This document shows, in pieces, positions 2,648 to 64,000 of a stretch of 64,000 nucleotides of DNA. The stretch is from a virus: positions 3,862-67,861 of IMG/VR virus record IMGVR_UViG_3300002835_000155; one strand, given 5' to 3'. A program made the translations under genes and the position numbers. Numbering within the stretch: the first letter of the stretch is position 1; each line of letters begins with the position of its first letter. The notes beneath the pieces were generated by a model. That model made no database searches. It worked only from the letters and a program-made list of their open reading frames with translations, and was not told the DNA's origin.

Positions 2648-2720
2648 GAGTGGGTCGTCTAACTGGCAAGACCACCGGGCGGCAATCCCGGTGATGCAGG
2701 TTCGAATCCTGCCCCACTCA
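2648..2720 (+). tRNA. tRNA-like gene, anticodon GCA (Cys), atypical
   Basis: Acceptor GAGTGGG/CCCACTC; D-stem GTCT/AGAC; anticodon stem CCGGG/CCCGG with loop CGGCAAT; T-arm GCAGG-TTCGAAT-CCTGC. G33, A73, no encoded CCA. Confidence 0.8.
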
Positions 2721-2740
2721 CTGGATGTTTTACAACACGC

Positions 2741-3739: not shown

Positions 3740-3786
3740 ACCCGTGATGGAGGGTCACTGCGGTGGCTCTCTTTCGTGTGTTTCCT
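3735..3786 (+). promoter_or_regulatory. Conserved intergenic RNA hairpin, copy 4
   Basis: AAACCCGTGA-TG-GAGGGTCAC-TGCG-GTGGCTCTC-TT-TCGTGTGTTT. Confidence 0.75.
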
Positions 3787-3807
3787 GTTTCGAAAGGAGG
3801 AAGTGCT

Positions 3808-4179
3808 ATGCTGAAAGTAAGATTCCACCTGGCCAAAGGTAAGAACTACCAGAAGTGGCAGATCCGAAAAGGCAGGGCTGTCTGTTACTACGATCCAACG
3901 AAGGTGAATCTCCTGATGCGGGATTGCCGGTTGGTGAATCGGAGAGGGACAGCAGAAAAGATATTCGCTGGTGAGGACAAGACGGTCTGTGCCTGGGTCG
4001 AATGCGAGACTGTACATGTCGGTGTTTGTGTTGCCGACCAGTACGACGCCGGGCAGCAACTGATATACAACCCGAGATGGCAACCGTTCTGGACATCATC
4101 GGAGACTGGAGCAAACCTGGATGGGGAGCGGTTCCCTATGATCCTGAGTCAAGGCAGGTCCTTGTTTGAGGTTCTTTAA
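3808..4179 (+). CDS. Hypothetical phage protein
   Basis: AAAGGAGG RBS before ATG 3808; KVRFHL..G.NY.KWQI and KTVCAWVECE motifs. Confidence 0.8.
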   Translation: MLKVRFHLAKGKNYQKWQIRKGRAVCYYDPTKVNLLMRDCRLVNRRGTAEKIFAGEDKTVCAWVECETVHVGVCVADQYDAGQQLIYNPRWQPFWTSSETGANLDGERFPMILSQGRSLFEVL

Positions 4180-11306: not shown

Positions 11307-12519
11307 CTGACGACTCCATTGCTTGGATCAACTCGATTGCTGTCTCGGGACGAACTTCTTCACCACGAGCACGGGCATCAACCAATTTGACACCCACAGG
11401 TTTAGACTGAACAAGTTTACCGAACTTGTCCTTATACTCGGCCCAGAGACCCTTCTCTTTCAGGACCTTCTCCAGTTTCGCCGGGGAGATCACGCCTTGT
11501 TCGGTGATATCCTTCGATGAAACTCCCTTGAAGACTCGCGGTACCTTTTTACGGATAGCCTCTTCGTCTTCAACGTACGCACGATTACCGTACTTCATAA
11601 TCAGTTTGTGGCCCGGGATCGGTTCGCCCTTCGACGCTCGATTAACCAGATCAACCACAACACCTTTCATGAAGTCCTTGACCACGTCGAACATCTGCAT
11701 GTACCTAACCAGTTGGTCAGTCGCCAGGTCCGATGTGGGTGTGGCCAGCAACGTCATGTCATTGGGATTCGTGAAGGTGGAAATCTCCACGAAGTCAGTG
11801 ACAAGTGCTTCTCTGGCTTTACAGCCTTCCTTACGGCGACAGTACTTACACCAGTCGCCTGCTGACAGGTTGTCTGGTTTAGGTACTGTCATGTCGGGGT
11901 TGTCCAGAACGAACTGAGCTGCCTCAGTGATCTGCCCCCAGACCTTTGTTAACTCATCGGCACCAGGTTCATACCGGCTAACCTGTGGGTTGCAGCGTGG
12001 TTGGACAATGATCTGCACAACCCGGCCGAACGTACGACCGAGTGTTGCCAGTGCCAGCAACGAGTAGGCCGTCAACTGGACTGAGTCTGCAAACACTGGT
12101 TTGTGCCCGTACTTCAGGTCCATGATGACCAGGATATCGTCACCCGGAATGATGCAGTCCGACGTACCGCCGAACATCTCGTTCGGGATAGACGGGTGTA
12201 CCAACTGCTGTTCTGACACGATAGTTGCCGGGTCAATACTGAACTCGGCACAGGCAGCTCTGGCTGTGTCGATGAACAACTCAACGCCCTCGACCATCTC
12301 GATTGTGATGGGGTACCGCTCGTCGAAGTCTTTACTGCCCAGCATGTCACGAGGGTTAGCCCCCCACGTCAGACAGAACTCCAGCAACGAGTGGCAGGTT
12401 GTTCCTTCCTCGGCTGCAGAAGACGGCTTGTCCGGGACGAACGGTCCGTAGATGGAACCCATGCAGTTCAGAATGCGAGGGAGCGACGATGGTCCCAGCA
12501 GGTAGTGTTTCCCGCTCAT
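11299..12519 (-). CDS. DUF2800 Cas4-like PD-(D/E)xK exonuclease
   Basis: LGPSS...C, AEEGT..H, FGGTSDC, DLKYG, QLTAY, WCKYC....C. Confidence 0.9.
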   Translation of the reverse strand: MSGKHYLLGPSSLPRILNCMGSIYGPFVPDKPSSAAEEGTTCHSLLEFCLTWGANPRDMLGSKDFDERYPITIEMVEGVELFIDTARAACAEFSIDPATIVSEQQLVHPSIPNEMFGGTSDCIIPGDDILVIMDLKYGHKPVFADSVQLTAYSLLALATLGRTFGRVVQIIVQPRCNPQVSRYEPGADELTKVWGQITEAAQFVLDNPDMTVPKPDNLSAGDWCKYCRRKEGCKAREALVTDFVEISTFTNPNDMTLLATPTSDLATDQLVRYMQMFDVVKDFMKGVVVDLVNRASKGEPIPGHKLIMKYGNRAYVEDEEAIRKKVPRVFKGVSSKDITEQGVISPAKLEKVLKEKGLWAEYKDKFGKLVQSKPVGVKLVDARARGEEVRPETAIELIQAMESSDE

Positions 12520-13154
12520 ACGTTGACTCCCTGCTGACGGAGTGCATTAGCCAGCAAGGAAGCATTCTCGTTGGTCAAGCCAGCGATTGACACACCGCTT
12601 GCTGCCTGAGCTGCGGCGACTATCGCCTTGCCGTTCGTCAGACTGTTGTGAGCACGGATAGCTGCGGCTCGTACCGTTCCGGCGTCAATAGCAGGACCGG
12701 TTATCGGGGCCATCGCTGCCACGCCAGTTGTTACAGGTGCCACGGTGAGTGGAGCCTGATTGAACTGAGGCATGACCGGGGCTGATGGTGGTGTTGCTGG
12801 CGTAACCGGTTGGTTACTCAGCACATCAACGGCAACGGATTGCTGGTCCAACCCACCCTTACTCGGCATAAAAGTCGGCACACCATTTTGCACAACTGGC
12901 TGCTTAGCCGGAGGTGCTGGCATGGACGCGGGTGGGACCATCTGCTGCACCGGTAGTGCAAAAGCTGGCACGGCTTGCGGGGCCTCGGGTGCCGCAAACA
13001 CCGGTAGGATCGCGTGTGATGTTGAAGTTGCAACTTCCGGTATGGTCCGCTGCGGTGTAACGACTGGTAGACCCAATGACGATTGGATCTTCTGCCGGAG
13101 TTCTTCCGGCAGGAGTTTCAACTCCTCCAGTCCCAATGAGATAGTCACTTGCAT
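12516..13154 (-). CDS. Pro/Ala-rich protein of the DUF2800 module
   Basis: Start reassigned to ATG 13154 (GGAGG RBS, downstream of promoter). Confidence 0.75.
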   Translation of the reverse strand: MQVTISLGLEELKLLPEELRQKIQSSLGLPVVTPQRTIPEVATSTSHAILPVFAAPEAPQAVPAFALPVQQMVPPASMPAPPAKQPVVQNGVPTFMPSKGGLDQQSVAVDVLSNQPVTPATPPSAPVMPQFNQAPLTVAPVTTGVAAMAPITGPAIDAGTVRAAAIRAHNSLTNGKAIVAAAQAASGVSIAGLTNENASLLANALRQQGVNV

Positions 13155-41358: not shown

Positions 41359-44157
41359 TTATGGGATGCCGAGAACAATCTTGTCCTTGCGGTCTTCCTT
41401 GTCTCGACGGAAACGATCCTGGATAAACTTCTGGTCTGCCTCCCACATGAGGAGACCGGGGTCTTTGGGAACCTGATTCACCGGAGGTGCCATGAACTTC
41501 GGGTTGAATCCGGCGTAGTACTCAGCACAATTCCCAGTAACCATTACCTTCATATTTCTTCGCACAATCAGTGTGCCGTTTGGTACGGTAGCACAGTACA
41601 CTTTCCCTGAATAGTGTTTTCTCGTAGGCAAGTATTCGTTTTTGTGATTTACAAGGGAAGCGACTCCTCTTCGAAGGTACACCCAGTACTGATCTCGGCC
41701 TAACCCCGTTCTACCTTCTATGTTCCAGTCTTTGCCTTTGCGAACCGTGACAGACGTGTGTTGGCCAAGTTTAAGGTACAACTCCTGTAGGTCACCAGCC
41801 AGAAGCCTACTCGTTGTAGCCATATGGTCTTTACCCCGTTGGACCCAACCATCACCGGCGAGATACCCTCGAAGGAAAGCCCTGATTACATTAGGGGCAG
41901 ATTGTTTGACCCAATCTGGTACCCTTTTATCCCAAGCCTTGTACCCCAGATTCATATCATGGATGGCTGTCCACAACTGCCTACTGGATATTACGTAGCT
42001 GCTCTTATCCCGCACCCAGTGCCACGGTACACGGTTCAATAAGTTTTCCAGTTTCACGACACCGTCAGGCTTTACCTGAGCTATCTGGACGCGGTAGCCG
42101 CTACCTGGTATTTTTACTACTTGATCTATACTGCCTTCCGACACCCACCATCCGATCAGTTCTGCGTAGTCTTCGGTGTTGATTGATGCAGCCTTATTAC
42201 GACACTTCCACGGGCATGTTAACTCGGTTGTCTCCTGGGACTGTACCCCCCATTCAACACCCGGACTCAGCTTCAACAGGTTTTGCCGGGGTAAATCTTC
42301 TGCGTTGACGAACACCCATTTGTCTCGGTCGTGCTGCCGGTACACCACCATCCGGTGGGTTGGTGTCACCGAGCAGCTCACTGTGCGGGTTTCTATCTCA
42401 ACCAGGTCGCCGTCAAACTGTTTTTCTACCCAACGTACCGGCGACTGGTACTCCAGTGTATTCTGTGGGCTAACTGTAGCAAGCCTCTCCGTACGATCTA
42501 CGGTATCCCACGTCTTCCAACCTGAGTCTGTTAACACCTCTACCGAGGGGTGGAAACAGTCTAAGATGTCGTGGATCTGGCCCGGAGCGAGCTTGTCCTG
42601 AACATCCTCCTTTGTAACGGCTTTCACCGTCGTCTCTAACTGTTTGACAAGCACCGGGCACATGTGAGTCACAACGCGAAACCGGGGTCGGCCGCATGAC
42701 GTTCGTACCTGCATTAGTGTACGTAACTTCAACGAACGGTTAACCCAGACGGTCTCACCCCTGAGAAACATATCACCGGTCAATTGACAACGCAAGCCCG
42801 CCTTCCGGAACTCCATCTCGTAATTCTGGAAAACCGTATGGGCGTGCCCCATTGGCGTCTGATCACCTGCCTTAGCGTCTCCAATGAATCGGGCGTACCA
42901 GCGGTGTGGATCGGCTGCTTTGGCTCGTCTGGCCATTTCTCCAGCGTGAATACGTGGGACAGCCATCTCCCGGAATACGATGTGGTAGGGGTCGCCGTCG
43001 TCCCAGAAAGACTCAGGAGGTATTGCCACCCAGAGCAATGCAGGCCGGACAGTACCCGGGTCAAGGATGATATCAACGCACCAGTCGGCTGGAGCGTTCC
43101 AGTTGAGCCGACGCATCGCCTCGGTGACCTTGTCGTTCAACGGGTGTCCATCGCCGTAGTCAACACAGTGGGTACGCTTATTGAACTCCGGGTACGCGAG
43201 GATGTTACCAACGACGAAGTCGCCCATCGCACGAGCGGTTATCTGATCCTCTGACCAACCTTCGATACGCTTACGCTTTTCATCCTCGTCGATGAAGGGG
43301 TTCTTGAATGAGGTGAACTTGAAGTTGGTTACGTCGAGCTTTTTACGAGTACCTGCGTTGAACTCTTCTCGTTGGTTCTCGCATCGCCGGTATAAGTCGA
43401 GCAGGGCAGGCGTCGAAGCGTCCGGCCACGATGTCCAGAAGATACGGCCCTTACGGTCGGACAGACGAGACTGCCACTCGGCGTAGTGGCTGCTGTTCTC
43501 GATTTCTTCGTCGATCCAGATGATGTTTACAGGGTCGCCACGCTTCACAGCTCCAGACGATGCAAACGCATAGACGGTTGAACCGTCCTTCATGGTCAAC
43601 GACTCAAACTGGAACGCTGCCTTGTTAGCCCACGATTCCTTCTCGATCATTGTTGGCGGGATGAACGGTGGTGCTGGCTTCCTCTCGTTGACTGGTATTA
43701 CGTCATCCCCTGGTACAACGCCTGGCTGCCAGCATCTCCACATGCCGGTTGTCTTGTCTCGAACAATGTCGAACGCTCCCGGTTTGCAGAGCAGTCGATA
43801 GATCGTCTGACCGATGTGGTTCAACTGCAGACCGATAAGCCACACGTTGACCGGTCGGTCAAGCCAACCGGGTTCACGCACGTAGTGTTTCGACCCATCC
43901 GAAAAGGTAATGGGTACTCCTGTCAGGTACGACGAGACCATCGCTGCTACGATTGTGGACTTGCCAGATCGTGGTGCTCCTTGTACCAGAATTTCGGAAG
44001 CCCCACTGAGGACAACCTCTTCCTGGTACTTCGTTGGCCTGAACAGTTCAAGGGCGTTTACCCGTTGACGTACGAGCTTAGCAGCAGCAGCGACACCTTG
44101 TTGAAGGTCCTGCCTGTCTTTCAGTGATGACTTTATTCGACTGATGAGATCACTCAT
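41359..44157 (-). CDS. terL: Terminase large subunit (intein-containing)
   Basis: GAPRSGKS Walker A, IWIDEE Walker B, ILDPG nuclease Asp, C-terminal HDILD|C.EY. Confidence 0.92.
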   Translation of the reverse strand: MSDLISRIKSSLKDRQDLQQGVAAAAKLVRQRVNALELFRPTKYQEEVVLSGASEILVQGAPRSGKSTIVAAMVSSYLTGVPITFSDGSKHYVREPGWLDRPVNVWLIGLQLNHIGQTIYRLLCKPGAFDIVRDKTTGMWRCWQPGVVPGDDVIPVNERKPAPPFIPPTMIEKESWANKAAFQFESLTMKDGSTVYAFASSGAVKRGDPVNIIWIDEEIENSSHYAEWQSRLSDRKGRIFWTSWPDASTPALLDLYRRCENQREEFNAGTRKKLDVTNFKFTSFKNPFIDEDEKRKRIEGWSEDQITARAMGDFVVGNILAYPEFNKRTHCVDYGDGHPLNDKVTEAMRRLNWNAPADWCVDIILDPGTVRPALLWVAIPPESFWDDGDPYHIVFREMAVPRIHAGEMARRAKAADPHRWYARFIGDAKAGDQTPMGHAHTVFQNYEMEFRKAGLRCQLTGDMFLRGETVWVNRSLKLRTLMQVRTSCGRPRFRVVTHMCPVLVKQLETTVKAVTKEDVQDKLAPGQIHDILDCFHPSVEVLTDSGWKTWDTVDRTERLATVSPQNTLEYQSPVRWVEKQFDGDLVEIETRTVSCSVTPTHRMVVYRQHDRDKWVFVNAEDLPRQNLLKLSPGVEWGVQSQETTELTCPWKCRNKAASINTEDYAELIGWWVSEGSIDQVVKIPGSGYRVQIAQVKPDGVVKLENLLNRVPWHWVRDKSSYVISSRQLWTAIHDMNLGYKAWDKRVPDWVKQSAPNVIRAFLRGYLAGDGWVQRGKDHMATTSRLLAGDLQELYLKLGQHTSVTVRKGKDWNIEGRTGLGRDQYWVYLRRGVASLVNHKNEYLPTRKHYSGKVYCATVPNGTLIVRRNMKVMVTGNCAEYYAGFNPKFMAPPVNQVPKDPGLLMWEADQKFIQDRFRRDKEDRKDKIVLGIP
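41530..42558 (-). mobile_element. Intein with LAGLIDADG endonuclease in TerL (343 aa)
   Basis: CFHPSVEVLT..GW, TPTHR, IGWWVSEGS, FLRGYLAGDG, VYC...TGN|C. Confidence 0.93.
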
Positions 44158-49618: not shown

Positions 49619-49631
49619 CTTGGGTCCTTAT

Positions 49632-49749
49632 GTCTGGGGGTTAAACATTCCCAAGCATGAGAATCCTTTTAGCCTTGCATTGCAATAGCAAGAAGTTTAC
49701 AAACTATTCAGATTCGGCTTTTTCAGCTTTCTCGGTTTTACCCCCAGAC
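49632..49749. promoter_or_regulatory. Divergent control region bounded by 15-bp inverted repeats
   Basis: GTCTGGGGGTTAAAC (49632-46) and GTTTTACCCCCAGAC (49735-49), 14/15 match; central palindrome CTTGCATTGCAATAGCAAG. Confidence 0.65.
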
Positions 49750-49759
49750 GGAGTTACAG

Positions 49760-50002
49760 GTGCTGATAGACGAGAATGAGCCGCCGTACATGACCCCAAA
49801 AGAAGTGGTCGCCTGGCTCAAACAACGTGGCGTTGAAGTGACGACAGACACGGTTCGCAACTGGTGTCTCAAGGGACTGCAGAATAAAAAAAGACCCGAG
49901 GTGCGTTACTACCTCGGGTCTTTCTGGTTGGGTGGTCGTCTTCAGATTTTCAGGGATGAGCTGGTTGTGTTTGCTCAGGCTTTGGTGCCTCAAGATACCT
50001 GA
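49760..50002 (+). CDS. Excisionase/MerR-like HTH protein
   Basis: YMTPKEVVAWL...VTTDTVRNWCLKG...LGGR. Confidence 0.78.
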   Translation: MLIDENEPPYMTPKEVVAWLKQRGVEVTTDTVRNWCLKGLQNKKRPEVRYYLGSFWLGGRLQIFRDELVVFAQALVPQDT

Positions 50003-50026: not shown

Positions 50027-51565
50027 TCATCCCAGTCTCCCCATAAAGTCTGCTGCAGCCTCTGGTGACGCACACGATGACGCCAGCATTGTCAGTGACT
50101 GCTTGTCCTTTAGCCGTCCCGGAAACATCTTCGCAACGCGGAGGAACTCTGTCTGGTTCCGCATAAGCTGACACGCTGTCTCCGGACTCAACGGGTACCG
50201 CACCTCACCCTTGTGTTTCTGTAACTTTTCGCACAGCTTGTGACGTCGTTCGCTGAACTCGATCTTCTGCATGAGGTGAACCCGACGAGCGTATGTTCTA
50301 CACGACTCGCCGTACTCGCCCTGTATTGGCGGCAGGCCCTTCCTCTTCAACCACTTGTTACTGATGACACGGAATGCTTCCTTCCGACTACGATAGTTCT
50401 TCGCTGTCAGGTGAAGCTCAATGTGCATGTAGAACCGTTCGTCTGCCGAAAAGATGTTCTCGAAGTGGTAGTGCTTCTGGTTGAAGTGTTTCTTCATGTC
50501 ACGCAGGAGCTTCGGTACACGCATCGCCTGCATCTTCGGGTTGACCCCGATGGCCCCAAAGTTACCGAGTCGTGTCAGGCGTGAGATGTCCTGTGACTCG
50601 ATCTCCGCAAACATGGCCAGCATCTGCATAAGCATCTTGCCCTGAGGCTTGTCTGTTCTCAGGTCGCCCTCAACGGTCATCAGGGACGCCCCGGTCTTGT
50701 GGATCGAATCGACCACTCGGTTAGCGTCGACCATTGACCTGAAGAGACGGTCTGGTCGCCACGCCACAACCATGTCGCCGGGCTTCAGTGCCTTGAGCAT
50801 CTCGCCCCCGGCCTTTCTCTTCTCGAACTTGGTCTTGAAGGCTGACACCCCTTCATCCTTGTACCAGATGACCTCAGCTCCACGCAGGTCTGCTGGCAGG
50901 AGCTTAGTCAGCAGGTTGACCTGATGCTCGACTGTCTGGTCATTCGTCGATACGCGGACGTAGGCATGGACTCGGCCTGTGAACTTGTACTTATCAGCTT
51001 CACGGTCGCGTTGGATCTGCTGAAGGATGGCACCGATATCTTTTGATGAAGACAGTGGCTCGACTACCACAGGTTTTGGTCGCTCGGGTGCTACCGCTTT
51101 AGCGATGACTCGTGACTCTTTAACTCGGGCTGAGATCAGTTCTGATCGTAGCTGAGCCATGACAGCCATCATGTAGAGCATCGCCTTGCCGTTGGCTGTA
51201 TCCGTGTTGAGCGTTGGGTAGTCGACGAACTTCACCGTCACGCCGTTCTGTACCCACTGGTCCATCACAGCAACCATGTCGTTAAACTGGCGGAACAGAC
51301 GATGGGTGGCTAACGCGATGATGACGTCGCCGGGTTTAGCGTTGCCAAGCAGCAGGAGCCCACCTGGCCGTTGGCATAGCTTCTTCTTGAAGGCTGACTT
51401 ACCACCGTCGATGAAGACGCCGGGCAGGTCACAGTTGGTCTCAAGACCAAGCAGGTAGTCGTTGTTCCTGGCGTACTCAAGACACACCCGGACCTGCTGG
51501 TCAATGGAGTAGCCGTTGACGTACTGATCGAGTGTTGAGACTCGTGCGTAGATCCATGTGCTCAT
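50027..51565 (-). CDS. Serine recombinase with two tandem resolvase catalytic domains
   Basis: YARVST...GDVII...HRLFR and YVRVST...GDMVV.WRPDRLFR, each followed by an E-helix; basic ~170-aa C-terminus. Confidence 0.9.
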   Translation of the reverse strand: MSTWIYARVSTLDQYVNGYSIDQQVRVCLEYARNNDYLLGLETNCDLPGVFIDGGKSAFKKKLCQRPGGLLLLGNAKPGDVIIALATHRLFRQFNDMVAVMDQWVQNGVTVKFVDYPTLNTDTANGKAMLYMMAVMAQLRSELISARVKESRVIAKAVAPERPKPVVVEPLSSSKDIGAILQQIQRDREADKYKFTGRVHAYVRVSTNDQTVEHQVNLLTKLLPADLRGAEVIWYKDEGVSAFKTKFEKRKAGGEMLKALKPGDMVVAWRPDRLFRSMVDANRVVDSIHKTGASLMTVEGDLRTDKPQGKMLMQMLAMFAEIESQDISRLTRLGNFGAIGVNPKMQAMRVPKLLRDMKKHFNQKHYHFENIFSADERFYMHIELHLTAKNYRSRKEAFRVISNKWLKRKGLPPIQGEYGESCRTYARRVHLMQKIEFSERRHKLCEKLQKHKGEVRYPLSPETACQLMRNQTEFLRVAKMFPGRLKDKQSLTMLASSCASPEAAADFMGRLG

Positions 51566-52134
51566 AAGTTATCCCACTGTGCCGCCATCGCGTCAGCCAA
51601 GCCTTGGTACGTCTCTGACCGTTTCTTGCCTCGGTCTTTCCCCGGCGACATCATGTGTATCCGAGCTTCACGCCCTTCAACAATGTTCGTCGGTTCCAAC
51701 TTCGGTAAGCCTTTTAACCACAGGCATGTTGCCTTGGTCTCCCCGTGGCCGAACTGCCACGGCTGAACGATCTGGGTGTAGTCTACCTTAATGATCTCTT
51801 TGGCGTGCTTGTGCATGATCGGATTCTCAATACAGACTCTCGGGCAGTCAACTTCGAGAAACTTACTGAAGAACTCGGCACCGGCCTTCATCTTCTCTTG
51901 ACGACCCTCTTCCGTGTACAGCCATCGAACTCCGCTGTTACAAAGGTAGGTACAAGGTGGGTGAAAAATACACAAGTCCCAACCGCAGTCCAGTATGCTT
52001 AAAACATCGCACTGTAGGTGGTGTGGGCTCCCGTCGTCTGCTGGTAGAAGATCACATGACCAAGCGTCATGCCCTCTAGCCCGGAACGCTCTGCGAACAG
52101 CCCCTGAGAACTCACATCCAACTAAGACGTGCAT
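51562..52134 (-). CDS. Short phage C5-cytosine DNA methyltransferase-like protein
   Basis: VLVGCEFSG, SCDL, FHPPC, IENP, RSETYQGLADAMAAQW. Confidence 0.85.
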   Translation of the reverse strand: MHVLVGCEFSGAVRRAFRARGHDAWSCDLLPADDGSPHHLQCDVLSILDCGWDLCIFHPPCTYLCNSGVRWLYTEEGRQEKMKAGAEFFSKFLEVDCPRVCIENPIMHKHAKEIIKVDYTQIVQPWQFGHGETKATCLWLKGLPKLEPTNIVEGREARIHMMSPGKDRGKKRSETYQGLADAMAAQWDNL

Positions 52135-52655
52135 TGCATTCCGCTCCAAGTCGTTAAGTTAAAAAGTCGTGTTATCGTTGGTCGTGATACTCCGAAAAGT
52201 TCGGCTATCTCTAATTGGGATGCTCCACCCTCCCAAAGTTCCCACGCTCTATGCCTGTCATCAGCAGTGAGTTTTCCGGTGCGTCGAAGGTCATACGTAC
52301 CATGACGTTTCTTATCCTGTTCGTTCTCCCAGTAGGACCCCCATGCAAGATTATCTGCCCGGCAGTTAGCCGGGTTTCCGTCAAGATGCCTGACGCACAG
52401 GTGAGACTTCGGGTTTGGTACGAAAAGTGTAGCAACGAGTTTGTGTACCCGGATTTTGACACGCTCTCCTGACCTCCCACAAAGTGTCAGTCCTGGATAT
52501 CCTTTTGCGTCTGTAGAGGGGTTTAATCTTCTGTACTCTGACCGAAACCCACGACTCGTTTTGCAGGAAAGTACGTACCCGTCGCTACACACGAGATATC
52601 CGTCAAAACTTGGTATGGGTTTTACATCGGTAGTTTCTAGGAATGGACCGTTCAC
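52122..52655 (-). CDS. NUMOD4-type HNH homing endonuclease with C-terminal HTH
   Basis: Y.V.SDG.V.S, VHKLVA..F, VRHLDGN..N....NL.W, IAELFGVS. Confidence 0.9.
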   Translation of the reverse strand: MNGPFLETTDVKPIPSFDGYLVCSDGYVLSCKTSRGFRSEYRRLNPSTDAKGYPGLTLCGRSGERVKIRVHKLVATLFVPNPKSHLCVRHLDGNPANCRADNLAWGSYWENEQDKKRHGTYDLRRTGKLTADDRHRAWELWEGGASQLEIAELFGVSRPTITRLFNLTTWSGMQCTS

Positions 52656-57529: not shown

Positions 57530-57544
57530 GAAACAGATTGTGTC

Positions 57545-57572
57545 GGGGCCATCTTTTCGATAGGATGGCCCC
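57545..57572 (+). other. Intergenic hairpin
   Basis: GGGGCCATC...GATGGCCCC; argues for a next-gene start near 57604. Confidence 0.55.
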
Positions 57573-57603
57573 GGTTTATCAGCCAATCCTTGCGGAGCCA
57601 CGT

Positions 57604-59454
57604 ATGTTCACGTTGGAGAAGGGCGTCAGCCCTAACGTCGTCAGTGTGTACCTTGACTGCAAAAAGAAGAGAGAGCACTGGTTCTTGTTGAGTGGTGACC
57701 GGCACCACGATAATCCACATTGTAATCAGGAGCTTGAGAAGAAGCATCTCGACGAAGCCCTTGAAAGAGAAGCTGGTATCATTGATATAGGTGACCTGTT
57801 CTGTGCGATGCAGGGTAAGTACGACAAAAGGTCGAACAAGTCAGATATCAGACCTGAGCACCAGAACGGTGAGTACCTTGACTCACTGGTCACAACGGCC
57901 GCAAAGTTCTACGAGCCGTACGCGAAAAACATTATTGCTCTGGGCTACGGCAACCACGAATGTGTTGATGCTGACACGGAAGTTCTGACAAGACGTGGAT
58001 GGGTGGCAATACCTGAAGTCACGTTGTCAGACGTAGTCGCGTCGTTGCACCCACACAATGGTGTTGTGACTTGGGCAAAACCTGTCAAACTGCATGTGTA
58101 TCCACATCAAGGCAGCATGGTTAAGGTGGAAGGTAGGGGCAGTAACATGTTCCTCACTGAAAACCACAGAGTTGCGTACCGGGCACAGGGGTCAAACGAA
58201 CTTCGATACCGGTACGCCAAGGATATTTTCAGGTCTGCGGGAACTTGTGCCGCGATCCCCGTTTCAGGGGAATCCGGAAATGCTGAGTACGACCTGTCAG
58301 ACGATCAGCTATCCCTGGCTGCGTGGGTGCTATCAGACGGCTCAATTCCGAAGACGGAAGGGAGTAACTCTACATACATCTACCAGTCAAAGCCTGAAGG
58401 TATCCTAAAGATACGCGGGCTTCTGGATAGCCTTGGATTGGAGTACGTGGAACAGGTGCGGTCTGACCGGCCACTTCCCGCTGGGATTAAAACTATGCGG
58501 AACCAACACGTCTTTGTCGTAAAGACAAGGCTGCACTACCTGGTGGGGGTTGGTAAGAAAAGAGTGTTGCCTACCTGGGTATCGTTACTCAGTGACAGAC
58601 AGTTCAACGTATTCCTTCAGTCGTACATAGATGGTGACGGTACTCGCCGGAAGGCTCCGAACCAAACGGCCACTGCTATCTACGGAACTAAAGCGATGCT
58701 GGACTCCCTCAACGCCGAGTGTGTCACACATGGTATTCGGTCTTCCGTTATCTGGAGGAACGTGTCTACCGGTAAAGGTCACTACGTGTTGAACGTGGCT
58801 TGGCGTGGTAGCATCAGGATCAAGGCGTGTAACGCTGAAACAGTCCCCTTCGTCGGGAACGTGTACTGTCTTACAACCCATAGCGGGAATTTCTTCATGC
58901 GAAGAAAAGGTCTCGTGTGTGTTACGGGCAACTGTTCAATTCTCGGCAGGCACGAGACAAACTTAACAGAACGTCTCGCTCAAGCTCTCAGGACGAAGAC
59001 TGGAGCCTTGGTTCCGGTGACCGGCTATACCGGCTGGGTCAGGTTTAACCTTGATGGGGGTGGGGGGCGTAGAAGTTCTCGGACCCTTTGGCACATGCAC
59101 GGTTACGGTGGGGGTGGTCCGGTCACTCAGGACACCATACAGGCTCAGCGACAGAACGCCTACGTTGATGGGGCTGATATCATGTTGAGCGGCCACGTCC
59201 ATCAGAGGTGGCTGCAGGAGAACATGAAGGTGTACCTCGATACGTTCGGGGAGGTTAAGCACAGAAGTTCATGGTATGTCAAAGCAGCAACGTACAAAGA
59301 GGAGTACGGCTCCGGTGCCGGTGGTTGGCACGTCGGGACCGGCAAACCTCCTAAACCACTAGGGGCTTGGTGGCTAAAGCTCACACTTGATCGGTTCAGG
59401 TCTAAAGGTAAGGGTCACCTTATGACACACATTGAGATTACACCAACGAATTGA
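57604..59454 (+). CDS. Calcineurin-like metallophosphoesterase (intein-containing)
   Basis: GDRH, IGD, GNHE, HG, GHVH motifs; GGAG RBS before ATG 57604. Confidence 0.9.
   Translation: MFTLEKGVSPNVVSVYLDCKKKREHWFLLSGDRHHDNPHCNQELEKKHLDEALEREAGIIDIGDLFCAMQGKYDKRSNKSDIRPEHQNGEYLDSLVTTAAKFYEPYAKNIIALGYGNHECVDADTEVLTRRGWVAIPEVTLSDVVASLHPHNGVVTWAKPVKLHVYPHQGSMVKVEGRGSNMFLTENHRVAYRAQGSNELRYRYAKDIFRSAGTCAAIPVSGESGNAEYDLSDDQLSLAAWVLSDGSIPKTEGSNSTYIYQSKPEGILKIRGLLDSLGLEYVEQVRSDRPLPAGIKTMRNQHVFVVKTRLHYLVGVGKKRVLPTWVSLLSDRQFNVFLQSYIDGDGTRRKAPNQTATAIYGTKAMLDSLNAECVTHGIRSSVIWRNVSTGKGHYVLNVAWRGSIRIKACNAETVPFVGNVYCLTTHSGNFFMRRKGLVCVTGNCSILGRHETNLTERLAQALRTKTGALVPVTGYTGWVRFNLDGGGGRRSSRTLWHMHGYGGGGPVTQDTIQAQRQNAYVDGADIMLSGHVHQRWLQENMKVYLDTFGEVKHRSSWYVKAATYKEEYGSGAGGWHVGTGKPPKPLGAWWLKLTLDRFRSKGKGHLMTHIEITPTN
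57961..58932 (+). mobile_element. Intein with LAGLIDADG endonuclease (324 aa)
   Basis: GNHE|CVDADTEVLTRRGW, TENHR, LAAWVLSDGS, FLQSYIDGDG, VYC...TGN|C. Confidence 0.93.
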
Positions 59455-61857: not shown

Positions 61858-62039
61858 ACCGGTATGCAAAACCTTTACCAAGGGTCACTTGTATGGATTT
61901 GGAAAAACGTGAAAAAGGTAGTTGGACCTTTAGACGAGGCAATGCCCGGTGAAGCTGGTGAAAGGAGCCGTACCGGTATGCAGAATTGTTACCAAGGGTC
62001 ACTTGTATGGATTTGGAAAAACGTGAAAAAGGTAGTTGG
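61858..62039. repeat. Tandem 68-bp direct repeat (period 114)
   Basis: ACCGGTATGCA.....TTACCAAGGGTCACTTGTATGGATTTGGAAAAACGTGAAAAAGGTAGTTGG at 61858-61925 and 61972-62039. Confidence 0.9.
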
Positions 62040-63024: not shown

Positions 63025-63084
63025 TGGATTACCTTTTCTTTCTTTGTCGTGTTTACCCCGGGTCCCACAATGGGACCCGGGAAG

Positions 63085-63115
63085 CTACCATTCTTCACCG
63101 TCGGCTACTGTTCTT
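63085..63115 (-). promoter_or_regulatory. Repeated promoter-like element, copy 1
   Basis: AAGAACAGT-N10-GAAGAATGGTAG on the - strand. Confidence 0.65.
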
Positions 63116-63869
63116 ACCATTTGAAGCAGTAGAGGCTTTCAGGATTTTTTGCGTCCCGTTTGGCAGTCAATGCAGCGATAAACCTTCCTTGTTCGATCTT
63201 CAGTTCTGCTTCTCGTTTCTCAAGCCTGGATTCTTCGGAAGCCTTCCTTTGTGCATCCAATGCGTCAACGGCGTCTTCCCGTTGCTGCTGTGTCAATGGT
63301 TCACCCCGAGCGGTTTCAATGTTCTCACCAATCCACTCTGCTACTGCCTTTGCGATATATCGGGCAGGGTTCGTGATGCGGTTACCGTTCGCTTCCTGTT
63401 TTACAGATTGTCGCCAGTACTTAACGGCCATGTCCTGACGCAAGTCATCCTTATCGTGGGGCTGAAGTTCTGCCACCATATCTTTGCATGGTTGCTGATT
63501 CATTAGCCACCAAATCAGATACGGGCGGTCCGACTGCCGCGGGACCGGTCTTCCAGTGTGGTCAACAGTCGGGACCGGTTCAATTCCCTGTCCAGGCGTT
63601 TCCACGACTCCCGGGATTGCCGGTTCACCGCAGTCCAGGATTGCGTCCGGGAAGTCGATACACTTCGTTTGCCGCGGTCCTGAGATGTTCGGGACTGCTG
63701 ACAGCATTGGGTGGGGATACCTCATCCGTTTTGATGCCCGAATCACTGCCAATGTCACTCGTTCCGATTGGTTCTCAGTCCGGTATCCTAGTCTGCAGCG
63801 GACTTCATACTGTTCGCATCTCCAAGGGATTCCCTGATTATCGGATGCCATGCCAAGTGTTCCGATCAT
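63114..63869 (-). CDS. Hypothetical protein with a weak sigma region 2-like segment
   Basis: Start probably ATG 63869; DKDDLRQDMAVKYW...NPARYI; coiled-coil C-terminus. Confidence 0.6.
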   Translation of the reverse strand: MIGTLGMASDNQGIPWRCEQYEVRCRLGYRTENQSERVTLAVIRASKRMRYPHPMLSAVPNISGPRQTKCIDFPDAILDCGEPAIPGVVETPGQGIEPVPTVDHTGRPVPRQSDRPYLIWWLMNQQPCKDMVAELQPHDKDDLRQDMAVKYWRQSVKQEANGNRITNPARYIAKAVAEWIGENIETARGEPLTQQQREDAVDALDAQRKASEESRLEKREAELKIEQGRFIAALTAKRDAKNPESLYCFKW

Positions 63870-63956
63870 GTTCTGTCTTTCTTTCTGGGGTTCGGTCCGG
63901 CTCATCCGAAGTAGATGAGCCGGGATTGGTAGTATCGTCTATTGCTGACGATGACT

Positions 63957-63987
63957 CTACCATTCTTCTCCATGCTGAACTGTTCTT
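63957..63987 (-). promoter_or_regulatory. Repeated promoter-like element, copy 2
   Basis: AAGAACAGT-N10-GAAGAATGGTAG on the - strand. Confidence 0.65.
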
Positions 63988-64000
63988 TTCATTGATTCTT

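Follow-up and report, generated by a model that had tools for sequence, protein, structure and literature searches.

A serine recombinase with two catalytic domains in one polypeptide in a clade of uncultured freshwater phages

We found that an uncultured lake phage with a 67,861-base genome (IMG/VR record IMGVR_UViG_3300002835_000155) encodes a serine recombinase of 512 amino acids in which two resolvase-type catalytic domains follow each other in a single chain. The gene lies on the (-) strand at positions 50027–51565 of the window, that is, of the whole stretch of 64,000 nucleotides analyzed here (positions 3,862 to 67,861 of the record), and its stop codon occupies 50027–50029. It is a fixed core gene of a clade of uncultured freshwater phages with genomes of ~67 kb. 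To our knowledge, all serine recombinases characterized to date carry a single catalytic domain in each chain. Members of this superfamily cut and rejoin DNA site-specifically through a 5'-phosphoserine intermediate. Ordinarily, a pair of subunits cleaves both strands of a crossover site, and the synapse consists of four subunits. We hypothesize, with a probability of about 0.55, that the tandem protein is an active single-chain pseudo-dimer, a serine site-specific recombinase with two active sites per polypeptide that acts on a site in phage DNA.

The gene is a single frame of 512 codons without internal stops, and the Pfam Resolvase profile (PF00239, curated cut-off 23.3 bits) was matched in it twice, at aa 5–156 (87.3 bits, E = 4.2e-26) and aa 201–333 (102.3 bits, E = 1.1e-30). 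The initial annotation of two complete catalytic domains in one chain was therefore confirmed. Head 1 (aa 1–155; 51101–51565, - strand) and the fully canonical head 2 (aa 197–340; 50546–50977, - strand) share 34% sequence identity (E = 9e-18), and in an AF2 model a long E-helix is predicted in both (aa 124–157 and 307–341). The pTM of the single-chain model was 0.40, so that the mutual packing of the two heads is not confidently predicted, and a complex prediction for head 1 (aa 1–160) with head 2 (aa 195–345) scored 0.30 against a mark of 0.32. The linker between them (aa 156–196; 50978–51100, - strand) consists of a basic, proline-containing part, disordered in the AF2 model at 158–174, followed by a short conserved helix (177–190). 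It had been described as proline-rich, which is true of one short patch in which its prolines are grouped and not of the linker overall (4 of 41 residues). The linker is the least conserved part of the recombinase (21% mean pairwise identity), and the tether length was kept across the family (median 42 aa, range 32–74).

The C-terminal domain (aa 341–512; 50030–50545, - strand) begins with an R-x-P-K-L motif that aligns with the arm of Gin and continues as a basic, all-helical domain. These 172 residues include 35 lysines and arginines versus 17 acidic residues (pI 10.1), and the tail is presumed to be a putative DNA-binding region. Pfam reported only Resolvase for the whole recombinase at E ≤ 0.1, and for the tail alone at E ≤ 1 it returned a single chance-level row; PF07508, zinc-ribbon, and HTH_7 were found in neither search, nor does the tail contain a CxxC pair. 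The earlier description of a basic C-terminus without the modules of large serine integrases thus held. A Foldseek search of PDB with the AF2 model of the tail (8 sequences, mean pLDDT 69.1) gave no match at E < 1, a wide VIA-align search reached a best Z of 3.8, at which no fold could be named, and the ESM Atlas contained no usable match to the tail. At the other end of the protein, the MerR-like N-terminal HTH of IS607-type serine transposases is absent, since the catalytic motif begins at residue 6.

Both heads carry the motif Y-x-R-V-S-T. The predicted nucleophiles are Ser10 of head 1 (codon at 51536–51538, - strand), numbered through alignment to gamma-delta resolvase and TP901-1 integrase, and Ser206 of head 2 (codon at 50948–50950, - strand), placed by sequence alignment. 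When aligned to gamma-delta resolvase and Gin, head 2 retains Y6, R8, S10, Q14, Q19, D36, S39, R45, D67, R68, R71, and E118, and head 1 retains the same catalytic set except D67, which is replaced by H88, and E118, which is replaced by R140. The histidine noted initially in the DRLxR motif of head 1 is indeed there: H-R-L-F-R occupies aa 88–92, and D-R-L-F-R occupies aa 272–276 of head 2. Family-invariant residues are Y6, R8, S10, Q14, Q24, D53, S57, R66, R89, R92, R147, and E150 in head 1 and Y202, R204, S206, Q210, Q215, D237, S241, R250, D272, R273, R276, and E323 in head 2. Accordingly, the equivalents of Y6, R8, Ser10, D36, R68, and R71 are invariant in both heads; these are the residues reported as critical in Tn3 resolvase, and substantial cleavage and recombination are reported for its D67 and E118 mutants (PMC2794168). 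Among 148 two-domain representatives, Y-x-R-x-S was present in head 2 of all 148 and in head 1 of 118, the remaining 30 being mostly N-terminally truncated gene calls, while R68 and R71 were retained in head 1 of 147. The E-helices deviate from the canonical pattern in each head (head 1 lacks E118 and E124, head 2 lacks R125), so a non-canonical interface is possible.

The two-head layout was common to 56 of 57 word-search matches, and 52 of the 57 homologues were covered over at least 96% of the length at 37–96% identity. Profile-based screening of 1.84 billion proteins recovered it in 148 of 151 representatives, and at 50% identity at least 148 clusters were counted. All 141 head-1 segments split from all 148 head-2 segments in a tree (support 0.94), which indicates a single ancient duplication and retention of the arrangement since then. 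The layout was found in none of 305 matching records of cultured phages and in 0 of 4646 for plasmids, and full-text literature searches turned up no description of a serine recombinase with a second catalytic domain. As to the initial concern that the architecture might already be common and characterized, it is common in metagenomes, and the conserved design is apparently undescribed. Two archaeal loci with matches of ~1.2–2 kb (L036 and L080) proved to be adjacent, separate recombinase genes and not fusions, and IMG/VR scans with the single proteins P0128 and P0117 gave nothing useful.

The gene order primase ... recombinase, HTH gene (antisense), scaffold, capsid was the same in all 21 further IMG/VR loci and in the first 7 loci. 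In every case the recombinase gene lay a short way upstream of the scaffold and the capsid gene, paired with the small HTH_17-like gene, and even distant tandem recombinases (29–36% identity) adjoin scaffold, capsid, terminase, or portal homologues. Moreover, the recombinase and capsid genes diverge together, with the recombinase gene in a constant internal position even where the capsids are only 27% identical; as it has stayed beside the head genes throughout this divergence, the recombinase probably performs an essential step in the life cycle of the clade. The replication-gene operon ends with this gene, whose start and the stop of the upstream methyltransferase-like gene share 4 nt, and a strong intrinsic terminator follows (49888–49925, - strand; a 15-pair stem, then a T run), which lies inside the HTH reading frame and whose stem is maintained by paired changes in relatives. 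In the full 67,861-base genome, PF00589 had no match and PF00239 only the two heads, in agreement with the earlier claim that no other recombinase is present in the window. Other genes of the phage encode a DNA polymerase, a primase-helicase, an exonuclease, and MazG. No cultured relative of the phage was found: in tblastn searches of 50,697 phage records, the capsid protein had no match and the primase one weak match.

The HTH_17/excisionase-like gene (49760–50002, + strand, 80 aa) converges on the recombinase gene, as initially annotated, and each of the 14 family loci examined has it in antisense orientation between the recombinase and scaffold genes. Pfam gave no HTH_17 (PF12728) row for this reading frame itself, and 6 of 10 homologues matched HTH_17 below the 27-bit cut-off (10.2–20.6 bits, best E = 5.6e-4) over most of the profile. 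The best PDB profile match of the protein, a weak one (E = 0.08), was the HTH of the packaging-redirecting protein RppC. Between the HTH and scaffold genes there is a conserved control region (49619–49759, no strand assigned) with two or three 10-bp direct repeats of the AAACCGA type, TTTGTA, a TTGCAAGTCCAG-like box, a small dyad, and CCCCCAG plus RBS. This promoter-like region is unique in the window, and the HTH gene faces its 10-bp direct repeats. It is probably the late promoter and only a candidate for the recombinase site; its promoter-like look and its direct duplication around an inserted HNH gene in locus L250 count against a crossover site.

In the pseudo-dimer that we propose, each chain would contribute head 1, a tether of ~41 aa, and head 2, and two chains would form the four-serine synapse. 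With the arm motif and the basic C-terminal domain following head 2 only, each pair of heads would possess a single sequence-reading module, so that its site would be recognized asymmetrically. During infection, the recombinase would target a particular phage DNA site, and the always-linked HTH_17-like protein would help or regulate it. The textbook view of subunit rotation requires that the two subunits at a site rotate 180 degrees apart. A covalent tether stands in the way of this, except if the linker reaches across the tetramer or if both heads of a chain belong to the pair that rotates jointly. A bolder version, which we consider doubtful, is that the tandem recombinase is an obligatory lytic-cycle enzyme and not a lysogeny integrase, and that the tether pre-assembles a co-rotating pair or limits exchange to a single 180-degree step. 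If true, the direction and extent of recombination would be set by a built-in device, with neither a topological filter nor a separate directionality factor, and the family would offer a natural test of the rotation model.

Several other explanations of the protein and its neighborhood were considered. A frameshift or misassembly joining two adjacent resolvase genes, the objection that accompanied the initial annotation, was refuted and is given practically no weight: the frame is free of stops, no internal Met or other start is conserved in the vicinity of head 2, nearly all homologues share the full length and the layout (52 of 57 and 148 of 151, as above), and this stretch of DNA was present in contigs of four lake-water runs, which hide rare or minor forms, with no differing letters, indels, or joints. 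Loose contig ends in these runs were traced to short unrelated contigs. It is unlikely, though less extremely so, that only head 2 is catalytic and head 1 is a regulatory or structural pseudo-subunit in the partner position, with four chains or nicking chemistry. This idea draws on head 1 of the phage's own subfamily, where D67 is replaced by H, S, T, or N, E118 by R or K, and E124 by A, and which lacks its own DNA-binding domain; the D67 substitution could lower or alter the chemistry of this head. On the other hand, the canonical D is found at this position in 94 of 148 first heads of the wider family, and head 1 keeps the nucleophile serine and all the residues reported as critical in Tn3 resolvase (PMC2794168). 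In a dead domain, one would expect S10, R8, or R68 to be gone. Head 1 is in fact the most constrained part of the recombinase (mean identity 56%, against 52% for head 2), and in the closest pair, where dS is unsaturated, dN/dS was 0.025 for head 1, 0.039 for head 2, and 0.11 for both linker and tail. Judged from these substitution rates, both heads are under strong purifying selection, and the early suggestion that one domain serves as a regulator is weakened, both heads having the catalytic set and being equally constrained; the first interpretation of the gene was partly supported as a whole. An invertase is still less probable, to the point of being very improbable. It would flip an 88-bp segment between 15-bp inverted repeats in the control region (49632–49646 and 49735–49749) and so switch the late or the HTH promoter. 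The repeat is real (14/15) and less than 300 bp from the recombinase gene, and the protein matches the "DNA invertase" family phrog_125 (E = 3.5e-54). However, a comparable repeat occurred in only 2 of 8 regions scanned (12-nt arms, ≤1 mismatch), by eye it is partly retained in L081 and L082, the arms overlap the two 5' leader/RBS regions, and 88 bp is far below the length of known invertible segments. The contigs of the four runs contained no inverted form, a weak argument because contigs drop minor forms, and the window contains no further segment bounded by long inverted repeats; the long inverted repeats detected in it are 71–86% complementary and kilobases apart and look like chance.

As to the reaction carried out during infection, lytic-cycle genome processing is, in our judgment, slightly ahead of lysogenic integration. 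If the phage were temperate, the recombinase would be its lysogeny integrase, the HTH_17-like protein an excisionase or directionality factor, and attP would be situated close to the gene. Among PHROG families, the recombinase matched "integrase" best (phrog_95, E = 3.1e-56), the genome has no other recombinase, and the exact protein was also recorded on a 109,791-base contig, which is longer than the 67-kb phage. A conserved non-coding region adjoins the recombinase/HTH pair, and the small excisionase-type wHTH gene accompanied the recombinase gene in all 14 loci; 6 of 10 homologues matched HTH_17 below threshold. Nevertheless, all 22 family loci from a complete IMG/VR scan are on contigs of at most 68,044 bases, where phage genes border them on either side and host sequence does not, and no phage–host junction was seen in these loci or in the contigs of the four lake runs. 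The integrated relatives looked for were not found, so no att sites could be defined: no family member was among the best 80 loci listed from species-representative genomes, and none of 15 clusters looked up had an "nr" or UniRef source or a bacterium-linked name. No repressor, antirepressor, or partition family was detected among 54 ORFs scanned, and the gene content, from DNA polymerase to MazG, is that of self-replicating phages. Integrase modules are usually exchanged between related phages, while this gene co-diverges with the capsid gene in a fixed position, and unlike attP the adjacent DNA motifs were kept where the recombinase tails are only 21–28% identical. We therefore regard integration as possible but rather unlikely. 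Genome processing, which we put forward tentatively, would mean cyclizing the incoming genome through sites in its terminal repeat, or interconverting monomers and multimers for replication and packaging, with the HTH protein as a late-gene regulator and not a directionality factor. Consistent with it are the place of the gene, which in all members and also in distant relatives closes the replication operon and immediately precedes the head and packaging genes, its co-divergence with the capsid, the lack of any sign of lysogeny found, the direct repeats that the HTH gene faces in the apparent single late promoter, and the RppC match, best though weak, of the HTH protein. The record also contains a 967-base exact terminal repeat. 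The repeat region was matched in 1 of 5 relative records, once and mid-contig in a 92%-related record, and so the terminal repeat may be an assembly overlap. Furthermore, no processing site was identified, and no rearrangement appeared in the contigs of the four runs, in which rare forms are hidden. Monomer resolution is dispensable for phages with packaging from concatemers, and we know of no precedent for a genome-processing role among the serine recombinases of lytic phages.

In the accepted mechanism, two subunits on one site must rotate apart. A natural family of at least 148 clusters in which the domains are tied together and both active sites are kept by selection puts a direct question to the rotation model, namely how long the tether needs to be and which pairs are tied. 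The family may also provide a natural scaffold for reading non-palindromic sites, a property that engineers of designer recombinases have built artificially. Finally, the gene marks a broad, abundant, and wholly uncultured clade of freshwater phages.

The heads share the catalytic fold and residues of gamma-delta/Tn3 resolvase, Gin/Hin, and Sin. Foldseek matched the recombinase to 1gdt, 2gm5, Sin, and Gin; Gin (4m6f, E = 8.9e-10) and gamma-delta resolvase align to head 2, and gamma-delta resolvase aligns to aa 65–156 of head 1 (E = 8e-8). The long E-helix, present in both heads, and the arm motif, present after head 2, are likewise common to small serine recombinases. However, these have one catalytic domain and HTH_7 in ~180–210 aa, or ~185–200 aa for the examples named, whereas the tandem recombinase has two catalytic domains and no HTH_7 in 512 aa, with the 172-residue tail, for which no fold match was obtained, on head 2 only. 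The integrases of TP901-1, Bxb1, and PhiC31 are also phage-encoded, of comparable size, and linked to a small accessory gene. Head 1 resembles large serine integrases in the longer spacing between the S10 region and its Q19 equivalent (Q24), and its only end-to-end PDB alignments were with TP901-1 integrase (3bvp, E = 1.7e-4) and 3guv. In contrast to the tandem recombinase, in which Pfam reports neither, large serine integrases have PF07508 and a zinc-ribbon with a coiled coil behind the catalytic domain; the tandem recombinase has an extra catalytic domain, and no att sites or integrated forms of it were found. In CcrA/CcrB of SCCmec, two diverged catalytic domains likewise apparently cooperate, but they reside on two different polypeptides, both equipped with DNA-binding modules of their own, while the heads described here are fused and share one tail. 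Engineered heterodimeric or chimeric serine recombinases such as zinc-finger recombinases (PMC3241657) embody the same idea of paired catalytic domains reading non-palindromic sites with distinct modules; they are artificial and unlinked, whereas the tandem recombinase is natural, covalently linked, and equipped with a single putative reading module. The best ESM Atlas cluster for the whole recombinase was a 476-aa, Resolvase-only cluster, 93% viral, which we take as a lead only.

The recombinase gene (50027-51565, minus strand) is an open frame of 512 codons, in which the Pfam Resolvase family (PF00239, cut-off 23.3 bits) matched twice with no stop in frame, at aa 5-156 (87.3 bits) and aa 201-333 (102.3 bits). 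The two resolvase domains described in the initial annotation were thus confirmed, and so was its view that this is the only recombinase here, since across the genome the tyrosine recombinase family PF00589 had no match and PF00239 had only these two. In PHROGs, phrog_95 'integrase' and phrog_125 'DNA invertase' each matched two stretches of the protein. Head 1 (aa 1-155) and head 2 (aa 197-340) were 34% identical (E 9e-18). The AlphaFold2 (AF2) model, built from a 29-sequence alignment (mean pLDDT 77.9; pTM low for the single chain, 0.40), predicted two alpha/beta cores, each closed by a long helix (124-157 and 307-341), linked by a disordered segment (158-174) and one short helix (177-190), with an all-helical tail after the second. 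Foldseek matches of the model were catalytic domains only, from gamma-delta and Tn3 resolvase, Sin, Gin, and TP901-1. For the basic tail (aa 341-512; pI 10.1), Pfam gave no family and the fold search no convincing match; in Pfam the modules of large serine integrases were indeed not found, as had been proposed.

Catalytic positions were assigned by aligning the protein with gamma-delta resolvase and Gin in HMMER. Head 2 contains the full conserved set (Y202, R204, S206, Q210, Q215, D237, S241, R250, D272, R273, R276, and E323), without an equivalent of R125. Head 1 retains Y6, R8, S10, Q14, Q24, D53, S57, R66, R89, and R92 and keeps R125 (as R147), with H88 at the D67 position, R140 at E118, A146 at E124, and a longer spacing before the Q19 equivalent. 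According to PMC2794168, Y6, R8, S10, D36, R68, and R71 are critical in Tn3 resolvase, R119 and R125 are noncatalytic, and D67 and E118 mutants remain substantially active. The substitutions seen in head 1 therefore give no reason to expect an inactive domain.

Based on its domains and residues, the protein belongs to the serine recombinase superfamily, but its architecture differs from those of the known groups. Small resolvases and invertases have one head and HTH_7, large serine integrases have recombinase and zinc-ribbon domains, and neither these features nor those defining IS607-type transposases were found in it. Head 2 resembles the small resolvases and invertases, and the R-x-P-K-L motif that follows it aligns with the arm of Gin. 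In contrast, end-to-end PDB alignments of head 1 were obtained only with TP901-1 integrase and 3guv. The full-text literature search turned up no account of a serine recombinase with two heads in a single chain, and the family carries only the database name 'DNA invertase Pin-like'. Moreover, at a coverage of at least 80% of the query, the architecture occurred in 0 of 305 matching cultured phage records and 0 of 4646 matching plasmid records. The possibility that it was already characterised was not upheld in these searches.

A word-indexed search returned 57 matches, of which 52 aligned over 96% or more of the query with 37-96% identity, another 4 covered 67-87%, and 1 was an unrelated large serine recombinase. 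Both catalytic sets were invariant in an alignment of the query with 28 of these matches, picked across the identity range. The profile of this alignment, searched against 1.84 billion representatives, found 217 proteins at E <= 1e-30. Among the best 150 of these plus the query, HMMs of both heads identified two domains in 148 of 151; the other three were short, and one of them shares a 90% cluster with a 505-aa member. With such coverage, an assembly artefact or a frameshift joining two genes can be ruled out. Two Pfam Resolvase stretches and nothing else were detected in 10/10 wider representatives. The Y-x-R-x-S motif was present in all 148 second heads and in 118 of 148 first heads; most of the 30 exceptions are truncated gene calls whose start falls within the domain, and about 7 have R-x-S with a different residue at the Y6 position. 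The D67 position of head 1 was occupied by D (94), H (21), E (10), S (9), C (6), or N (5) in the two-domain representatives. The linker had a median length of 42 aa (range 32-74), and BLAST divided the tails into a cluster of 108 representatives, the window's type (21), one group of 3, and 14 singletons. When 289 domain segments were placed in a tree, with 7 short ones left out, all 141 first heads were separated from all 148 second heads (support 0.94), and this complete separation argues for a single ancient duplication or fusion. In the closest pair (dS 0.34-0.39; more distant pairs were saturated), dN/dS was 0.025 in head 1, 0.039 in head 2, 0.114 in the linker, and 0.111 in the tail.

The neighbors of the recombinase gene are phage genes. 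On its upstream side, the same strand carries genes for a primase-helicase and an HNH endonuclease, and a methyltransferase-like gene that overlaps the recombinase start by 4 nt. On its downstream side are a scaffold-like gene rich in P/Q, the major capsid gene and, further on, a large terminase with a probable intein and the portal. DNA polymerase, helicase, exonuclease, and MazG are also encoded. The complete listing of a family-specific IMG/VR scan contained 22 loci, whose contigs measure between 7,428 and 68,044 bases. The order recombinase, scaffold, capsid was kept in 21/21 new loci, in agreement with the first 7, and the primase was upstream in all 15 loci reaching that far. Recombinase and capsid identities fell together (92 with 93, 67 with 88, 52 with 78, and 37-41 with 62-64%). 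Four loci with the other tail type (recombinase 29-36% identical) were also phage, with neighboring homologues of scaffold/capsid (27-32%), terminase (37-38%), and portal (32-34%). The capsid had no match in 50,697 phage records. Freshwater and lake metagenomes from numerous studies contain the stretch, and in four of them the contigs are identical, without rearrangement. As to mobile elements, the large terminase (41359-44157, minus strand; weak Terminase_6N match) is longer than its relatives (932 versus 577-593 aa), has a LAGLIDADG_3 domain (aa 757-813), and probably carries an intein. A 638-aa protein (57538-59454, plus strand; weak metallophosphoesterase match; 294-316 aa in relatives) gave a below-threshold LAGLIDADG_3 match and may contain a second one. 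The HNH endonuclease (52122-52655, minus strand), with a C-terminal HTH, sits between the primase and methyltransferase-like genes and is probably a mobile homing-type insertion, because its homologue is missing at this place in the close relatives L243 and L244.

The position of the Xis-like HTH gene noted beside the recombinase (49760-50002, plus strand) was confirmed. In 14/14 loci a small antisense ORF, patterned like winged HTH proteins of the excisionase/MerR type, lies between the recombinase and scaffold genes; HTH_17 matched below cut-off in 6/10 homologues, and the best solved relative was the HTH of RppC, a weak match (E 0.08). The intrinsic terminator of the recombinase operon (49888-49925, minus strand; 15-pair stem) lies inside this ORF, in the part that encodes the HTH protein's wing, and paired changes preserve the stem in the related loci L082 and L087. 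Between the HTH and scaffold genes (49619-49759), all members share two or three 10-bp direct repeats (AAACCGA type) adjoining the HTH gene, TTTGTA, a TTGCAAGTCCAG-like box, CCCCCAG followed by the RBS, and a small dyad with mutually compensating arm changes. The dyad occupies about 49650-49672 here and the matching position in 13 related loci, some 30 nt upstream of the RBS of the scaffold gene. Its arms of 6-8 bp, with a spacer of 4-6 nt, vary between phages yet stay complementary; it may form a 5'-leader hairpin or serve as a co-evolving site for a protein. The 14/15 inverted repeat (49632-49646 and 49735-49749) was confirmed to be present and was poorly conserved. The whole module occurs once in the window, whereas in locus L250 (about 12080-12790) two copies in the same direction flank an inserted HNH gene. 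For these two reasons, a single late promoter with regulator sites would fit the module better than a crossover site.

What the recombinase does was weighed between two roles. Processing of the genome during the lytic cycle, to which we give a probability of about 0.35, is suggested by the core-gene behavior of the recombinase and by the absence of any integrated copy, repressor, or bacterial record from the loci, ORFs, and records searched; the repressor, antirepressor, and partition families had no match among the 54 ORFs scanned. Lysogenic integration, for which the linked excisionase-like gene and one over-long contig on record speak, was judged only slightly less probable.

Both catalytic heads are intact and selected together, and the gene for them and their single tail has a fixed operon position. 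Most likely, one chain would be the equivalent of a dimer, and two chains would make the four-serine synapse. Because the arm and the presumed reading domain are on head 2 only, each site would be read from one side, and we propose that site polarity would follow from that alone. The tether between the heads raises a real problem for subunit rotation: the roughly 42 residues might span the rotated tetramer and limit rotation to one step, or the heads of one chain might be the pair that stays together.

The source record is a single contig of 67,861 bases rated complete, of which the window covers 64,000. It has an exact terminal repeat of 967 bases (window 63034-64000, genome 1-967); in a 92%-related record, the corresponding region occurs once, in the middle of the contig. 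A motif of about 37 nt occurs near both borders of the repeat (63085-63121 and 63957-63993, 76% alike). Two copies of a 68-nt direct repeat (61858-61925 and 61972-62039) are 94% identical and 114 nt apart, and public contigs of three runs break there. ARAGORN predicted a tRNA-Cys (GCA) at 2648-2721 (plus strand), and a small early protein at 3763-4179 (plus strand) matched Pfam Phage_L5_gp82 with 29.1 bits (cut-off 27).
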